Shown piece by piece: positions 36,866 through 36,888 of a DNA stretch of 64,000 bases. Position 1 is the first letter of the stretch, and each line of letters opens with the position of its first letter. The notes beneath the pieces are model-generated. The model was not told the origin of the DNA and did no database searches. It saw nothing but the letters and a program-made list of their open reading frames with translations. This DNA is from Escherichia coli. Its GTDB lineage: Bacteria > Pseudomonadota > Gammaproteobacteria > Enterobacterales > Enterobacteriaceae. Made by a program: the position numbers and the translations under genes. The DNA lies in NCBI RefSeq assembly GCF_041248615.1, contig NZ_CP158426.1. One strand, 5' to 3'.

Positions 36866-36888
36866 AAGAATTGGTAGGGCCAATTCTT
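36866..36888. promoter_or_regulatory. Palindrome AAGAATTGG-N5-CCAATTCTT, candidate LldR operator upstream of lldP
   Basis: Perfect 9-bp inverted repeat ~200 bp upstream of lldP ATG; FadR-subfamily operators are short palindromes of this kind. Confidence 0.4.

Follow-up and report, generated by a model that had tools for sequence, protein, structure and literature searches.

The palindrome upstream of lldP in an Escherichia coli genome is very probably the published LldR operator O1 of the lldPRD promoter

We analysed a stretch of 64,000 nucleotides from Escherichia coli (contig NZ_CP158426.1 of RefSeq assembly GCF_041248615.1), referred to below as the window. It carries lldP, lldR and lldD and, upstream of lldP, a gene for a trimeric autotransporter adhesin, all four on the minus strand (Table 1). 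The regulator gene was recognised by the equivalog model NF007741 with 498 bits over 34239-35030, against a cutoff of 311. The RefSeq annotation used here comes from an E. coli record whose sequence equals that of the window along a 401-bp query, and the 401 bp around the site studied were matched in 5420 of 5426 complete genomes. The adhesin varies in length between strains (1439 residues here, compared to 1751 in a genome with an identical promoter). The open reading frame upstream of it (41331-42014, minus strand) had no NCBIfam match, and is annotated by RefSeq in a matching genome as a DUF3251 domain protein. On its upstream side, the control region of lldPRD is bounded by the intrinsic terminator that follows the adhesin gene.

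Table 1. Features of the lldPRD region and its surroundings, in window coordinates.
Feature	Position	Strand	Remarks
lldD, FMN-dependent L-lactate dehydrogenase	33052..34242	-	NF033901, 824 bits; RefSeq annotation
lldR, FadR-subfamily GntR regulator	34239..35015	-	NF007741 equivalog; RefSeq coordinates
lldP, L-lactate permease, 551 aa	35015..36670	-	NCBIfam equivalog NF007740, 1199 bits; RefSeq annotation
lldP 5' untranslated leader	36671..36779	-	holds O2 and the Shine-Dalgarno sequence AGGAGA
LldR operator O2	36743..36759	-	AATTGGCAGTGCCACTT on the lldP strand, within the 5' UTR
Putative lldPRD transcription start (+1)	36780	-	placed from reported geometry
Putative -10 region TAACCAT	36786..36792	-	weak consensus match; highly conserved block
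Putative -35 hexamer TTGCCA	36809..36814	-	5/6 to TTGACA, at -34..-29
Orphan AATTGG half-site	36831..36836	.	about -56..-51; no partner half
23-bp perfect palindrome	36866..36888	.	O1 extended by 3 bases at either end
LldR operator O1	36869..36885	-	AATTGGCCCTACCAATT, 17-mer, identical to the published sequence
Adhesin intrinsic terminator	36915..36944	-	13-pair stem, then TTCTTT
Trimeric autotransporter adhesin	41287..36968	-	YadA-like / EhaG in matching E. coli genomes; EhaG/UpaG type

An earlier reading of the sequence alone (the sequence-only reading) had reported a perfect 9-bp inverted repeat with a 5-nt spacer at 36866-36888, lying between the adhesin terminator and the start of lldP. 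Both the repeat and its placement were confirmed. The window reads AAGAATTGG-TAGGG-CCAATTCTT at these positions, the 9-nt arms are 100% complementary, and the repeat is flanked by the terminator (36944..36915, minus strand) and the lldP start codon (ATG at 36670, minus strand). However, perfect inverted repeats of at least 9 bp (spacers of 0-10) are common in the window, with 18 found compared to 3.4 ± 2.1 in Markov-1 random sequences, and we therefore dropped rarity of the palindrome as an argument for function. Most of the other perfect 9-bp repeats look like terminator or REP-type hairpins. The other repeats include those at 2600-2623, 7386-7407, 18470-18496, 27306-27332, 43465-43485, 45241-45262, 63378-63404 and 63461-63483; those of the GCCGGATG type have a REP-like look, and those near 63.4 kb are very AT-rich.

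It is the motif, not the bare palindrome, that sets 36866-36888 apart in the window. No other place in the 64 kb matches AATTGG-N5-CCAATT exactly, and the sole match with one mismatch, O2, belongs to the same promoter, at a distance of 126 bp. Those with 2-3 mismatches were at chance level (31 observed, 38.9 expected from shuffles). The hexamer AATTGG/CCAATT occurs four times in 36700-36900, compared to 0.08 times per 200 bp in the rest of the window. The sequence-only reading had pointed to recurring half-sites in this region, which is borne out in part: of the four copies, two are O1 itself, one belongs to O2 (36754) and one is an orphan. The orphan is only moderately conserved among enterobacterial promoters and may lie outside the LldR system. 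One arm of the terminator (GAGAATTGCCCTT, 36932-36944, plus strand) also resembles an arm of O1 (AGAATTGGCCCTA, 36866-36878, minus strand), from which it is one G indel apart, and the two form a 22-nt inverted repeat (I1) with 73% identity. This likeness is absent from the Salmonella-based Rfam consensus RF02055 and is probably due to chance.

Comparison with published operators identifies the site. The 17-bp core of the palindrome, at 36869-36885, has as its reverse complement, on the lldP strand, AATTGGCCCTACCAATT, which is letter for letter the published O1. A passage of PMC3582500, citing Aguilera 2008, gives AATTGGCCCTACCAATT as the 17-nt sequence that LldR needs for binding, and the same sequence is LldR box 1 of the yibL/lldP spacer in Anzai et al. 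2023 (PMC10272880, Table 1). The second LldR box of that spacer in the same paper, AAGTGGCACTGCCAATT, corresponds to window 36743-36759, and the authors note that the pair is in accord with the two sites that Aguilera et al. had described (PMC10272880). Four further citing papers (PMC8827060, PMC6731338, PMC9775004 and PMC6957213) do not give O1/O2 operator coordinates. The proposal of the sequence-only reading that the palindrome is an operator for LldR, a FadR-subfamily GntR regulator, to be compared with the published O1 and O2, is thus supported by an exact match.

The shape of the site also agrees with this family. FadR-subfamily operators are A/T-rich palindromes with TKGT/ACMA boxes and 3 nt between GT and AC, a shape described for LldR and PdhR (PMC4494728). 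On the lldP strand O1 reads TGGC-CCT-ACCA, which agrees fully in the right box, at 3 of 4 positions in the left box, and in the 3-nt gap. O1 as TGGC-N3-ACCA thus falls within the definition, and the FadR-type shape suggested earlier holds, but the 'spacer' is not free, as the C at -2 and the A at +2 are fixed and form part of the FadR-type core TGGN-N3-ACCA. In the genomic SELEX and gel shift experiments of Anzai et al., the lldP promoter gave the strongest LldR peak (62.9) and the tightest shift, and induction by lactate was gone in an lldR mutant (PMC10272880). These published data are for the identical K-12 sequence, and by them LldR would be expected to bind O1 here. Overall, with a probability of about 0.96, we take the palindrome to be O1 of lldPRD, the high-affinity site for a dimer of LldR. 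O1 is already published: it is real and functional, and it is not new.

The region upstream of lldP differs between the window and a K-12-type genome, while the control region does not. The two are identical over both boxes and the DNA between them, with no indel, so that O1 is the same 17-mer, its distance to the ATG is 215 bp in both, and O2 and the 126-bp spacing are shared. The sole difference is the upstream context: K-12 does not have the adhesin gene and has instead yibL and a REP-like sequence (2846-2960 of the compared genome). Homology between the window and K-12 breaks at about 36946, just past the terminator hairpin that both share.

We extended the comparison to other enterobacteria. 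Loci were picked with a degenerate pattern for the first ten codons of lldP, which avoids selection by the motif itself and yielded 57 loci from about 12 genera (Escherichia, Citrobacter, Salmonella, Klebsiella, Raoultella, Kosakonia, Enterobacter, Pluralibacter, Trabulsiella, Yokenella, Superficieibacter and others). Fifty-six promoters had enough upstream DNA (55 fetched loci and that of the window). An O1-like box was present 211-218 bp before the ATG in all 56, and O1 and O2 were 126 bp apart in 49 of them and 125 bp apart in the other 7. Over the 55 enterobacterial promoters, column conservation was 0.956 for O1 and 0.903 for O2, compared to 0.53 upstream of the palindrome and 0.75 between the boxes. 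Boxes identical to the E. coli/Citrobacter versions were also present in lldP promoters on a contig labelled 'uncultured Oscillospiraceae MAG' (1728-1756) and on a contig of 'Chryseobacterium sp. 18061' (974-1002); these are likely to be the result of contamination or misbinning.

The same alignment delimits the operator. Counting arm pairs outwards from the centre, offsets 3-7 were invariant and offset 8 formed a Watson-Crick pair in 33 of 55 promoters, while offsets 9-11, the outer three pairs of the palindrome, did so in 8, 11 and 14 of the 55, which is the level of chance. Conservation of the two triplets that flank the 17-mer was 0.44 and 0.47, equal to background, and among diverse E. 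coli the distal outer triplet was AAG, CAG or CCA with the 17-mer unchanged. At the centre, the C at -2 and the A at +2 were invariant (55/55) although they are not complementary. Because the outer three bases are at background and vary within E. coli, we take the operator to be the 17-mer and not the 23-bp palindrome. On these alignments, the functional unit is the published 17-mer with its invariant asymmetric centre, and the perfect 23-bp palindrome is peculiar to some E. coli lineages.

The layout of the promoter places the two operators on either side of the start of transcription. O1 and O2 are 126 bp apart in the window, which is 12 helical turns and so puts them on the same side of the DNA. 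The distance to the ATG of lldP is 215 bp from the start of the O1 17-mer and 89 bp from O2, and both distances are invariant in divergent E. coli. In the work of Aguilera et al. (2008, J Bacteriol 190:2997), the lldPRD start reportedly lay 110 nt before the ATG, with O1 at -105..-89 and O2 at +22..+38. Counted from the lldP start codon at 36670, these positions put +1 at 36780, O1 at 36885..36869 and O2 at 36759..36743, an exact fit with no adjustment. Relative to this presumed start, the centre of O1 is about 97 bp upstream and that of O2 about 30 bp downstream. The start is consistent with two other papers, one of which (PMC3424551, on FleQ) describes, in the passage concerned, LldR sites on either side of the transcription start. 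The other (PMC8689689) has, in its passage on this promoter, O1 and O2 flanking the -35, the -10 and an ArcA site, at a distance that matters owing to looping.

No full consensus promoter pair was scored in a sigma-70 consensus scan of the region, and the -35 and -10 elements in Table 1 are therefore proposed from conservation and spacing. In the putative -35 hexamer, the TTG does not vary among the enterobacterial promoters and the CCA has a conservation of 60-90%, and TAACCAT has the correct spacing relative to both this hexamer and the presumed start. The weak -10 and the lack of a sigma-70 consensus fit an activator-dependent promoter. Further blocks are invariant in the 55 promoters: TCACA at 36842-36846 (about -66..-62), which could be CRP-like, and AACA and ACA at 36799-36802 and 36821-36823. 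Judged from their conservation, these blocks between O1 and the -35/-10 region are candidate sites for other regulators. ArcA and catabolite repression have both been reported to act on the lldP promoter.

How might the two operators work? LldR is the lactate sensor, encoded two genes downstream of O1 in the same operon. In the published model, dimers of LldR bound at O1 (strong) and O2 (weak) cooperate when lactate is absent and repress transcription, probably by looping out the promoter. With L- or D-lactate, the repression mediated by O2 is lost, and LldR bound to O1 activates the intrinsically weak promoter. To our knowledge, DNA looping at lldPRD has been deduced from phasing mutants and never observed directly. 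Of this scheme, binding, the dual role and looping come from the literature, while the identity of the site, its geometry, the presence of the regulator gene, and the conservation of both boxes and of their phasing come from the present analysis. The published model has the LldR dimer on O1 turn into an activator once lactate is bound, and a passage of PMC3424551 states that both sites are required for repression and the upstream site for activation. The literature disagrees on details of the lactate effect: in the 2023 E. coli study lactate enhanced LldR complex formation rather than weakening it (PMC10272880), while a paper on Salmonella LldR describes simple repression that is relieved by lactate.

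This arrangement resembles other regulatory systems. As in two-operator looping systems with a dual repressor/activator, such as AraC at araO2/araI, two phased sites flank the promoter and are needed for repression; PMC3424551 draws the comparison with TyrR and FleQ. As in dual-regulator looping systems of the AraC type, the upstream site of lldPRD alone supports activation when the ligand is present. In contrast to these, lldPRD uses a regulator of the GntR/FadR family and a short loop of 126 bp, and looping has been deduced here from phasing mutants, not visualised.

Could the palindrome owe its conservation to something other than LldR? Given that perfect 9-bp repeats are fairly common in the window and that the site follows closely on the adhesin gene, it might have arisen by chance, or serve that gene as a further terminator hairpin, with no regulatory role. 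However, the hairpin on the minus strand is followed by CGCTTATCTGACC, which has no T-run, and the terminator scan returned only the separate hairpin at 36944-36915. K-12, which does not have the adhesin, keeps the site unchanged, and the core is 96% conserved over about 12 genera regardless of the upstream gene. We rejected a second terminator for want of a T-run, and chance on account of the deep conservation. This reading is effectively refuted by the conservation and the published binding data, and its probability is close to nil. Hardly more probable is that the palindrome is the stem-loop of a plus-strand antisense sRNA, the Salmonella candidate STnc380 (RF02055), that would run across the adhesin-lldP spacer, with the conservation arising from RNA structure. 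The window does match RF02055 over its full length (1-108 of 108; 36844-36953, plus strand; E = 0.0005-0.003). aauuGGuAGGgCCaauu is part of the consensus of this family, where it is shown as a 7-bp hairpin, and on its own the RNA hairpin exceeds shuffled sequences in stability (-9.3 kcal/mol, z = -2.8). Yet the score of 28.9 bits is far under the gathering threshold of 60, so that the window lies outside the family as defined. In Table S3 of Sittka 2008, STnc380 is listed in class V ('previously predicted'), in the STM3691/lldP spacer and antisense to both genes, with 0 cDNA reads in the control, 0 in the Hfq co-IP and the Northern entry 'not probed'. The plus strand has no T-run after the hairpin, and a scan of the region found a promoter-like site on neither strand and its sole terminator on the minus strand. 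The stem pairs are either invariant, and thus uninformative, or, outside the 17-mer, pair at the level of chance; within the 17-mer, the outermost positions form a Watson-Crick pair in only 33 of the 55, and the variable stem pairs show no consistent compensation across the 55. An RNA would also leave O2 and the fixed 125/126-bp phasing unexplained. In Rfam, loci of S. enterica arizonae and diarizonae, C. koseri and K. oxytoca had no STnc380 at the gathering threshold, and the arizonae and diarizonae loci had none even at E ≤ 0.1. STnc380 and the window share a homologous spacer, the antisense orientation and a consensus that includes O1, and the second hairpin of the RF02055 consensus is the adhesin terminator read antisense. 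It is more likely that RF02055 captures the conservation of the DNA operator and of a terminator on the opposite strand, and the family may not be an RNA at all.

A regulator other than LldR deserves more weight. The PdhR boxes of the pdhR-aceEF-lpd, ndh and cyoA promoters are, like O1, 17-bp FadR-type palindromes, and O1 matches the PdhR consensus AATTGGTnnnACCAATT at 13 of 14 positions. O1 lies under a PdhR gSELEX peak in the literature, lldPRD mRNA was up 3.3-fold in a pdhR mutant in one study, and LldR and PdhR are close paralogues, the LldR of the window scoring 180 bits on the PdhR model. The site might then be primarily a PdhR operator, at which lactate uptake is repressed in response to pyruvate and LldR is secondary. 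We consider this improbable, as the regulator encoded in the operon is LldR, the strongest LldR genomic SELEX peak is found here and lactate induction requires lldR (PMC10272880). The boxes also differ, with LldR and lactate acting at O1 and PdhR and pyruvate at the PdhR box, and in the left half TGGC replaces TGGT, its C being invariant in 55 of 55 promoters. In the hands of Aguilera in 2008, a pdhR mutation was reportedly without effect on an lldP-lacZ fusion. PdhR binds the O1 box in vitro (gSELEX) and its role in vivo is disputed; it may be at most a second occupant of O1, not the main one. A speculative and rather doubtful combination of these ideas is that LldR, responding to lactate, and PdhR, responding to pyruvate, compete at one 17-mer, whose asymmetric centre would either orient the activating LldR dimer or permit dual recognition, with RF02055 being no RNA. 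If this is true, a single operator would integrate both the substrate of lactate oxidation and its product.

Identifying the palindrome as O1 adds little as a discovery, since its mapping and mutation date from 2008 and lactate biosensors use it routinely. The RF02055 'sRNA' family appears to be built on the O1 operator, which calls for caution when the lldP spacer is annotated. The natural sequence variants of O1 and O2 could be used in biosensor design, and it is the 17-mer with its fixed asymmetric centre, rather than a longer palindrome, that delimits the functional operator. For the enterobacteria, the retention of the operator pair and its 125/126-bp phasing over about a dozen genera supports the looping model of lldPRD control.
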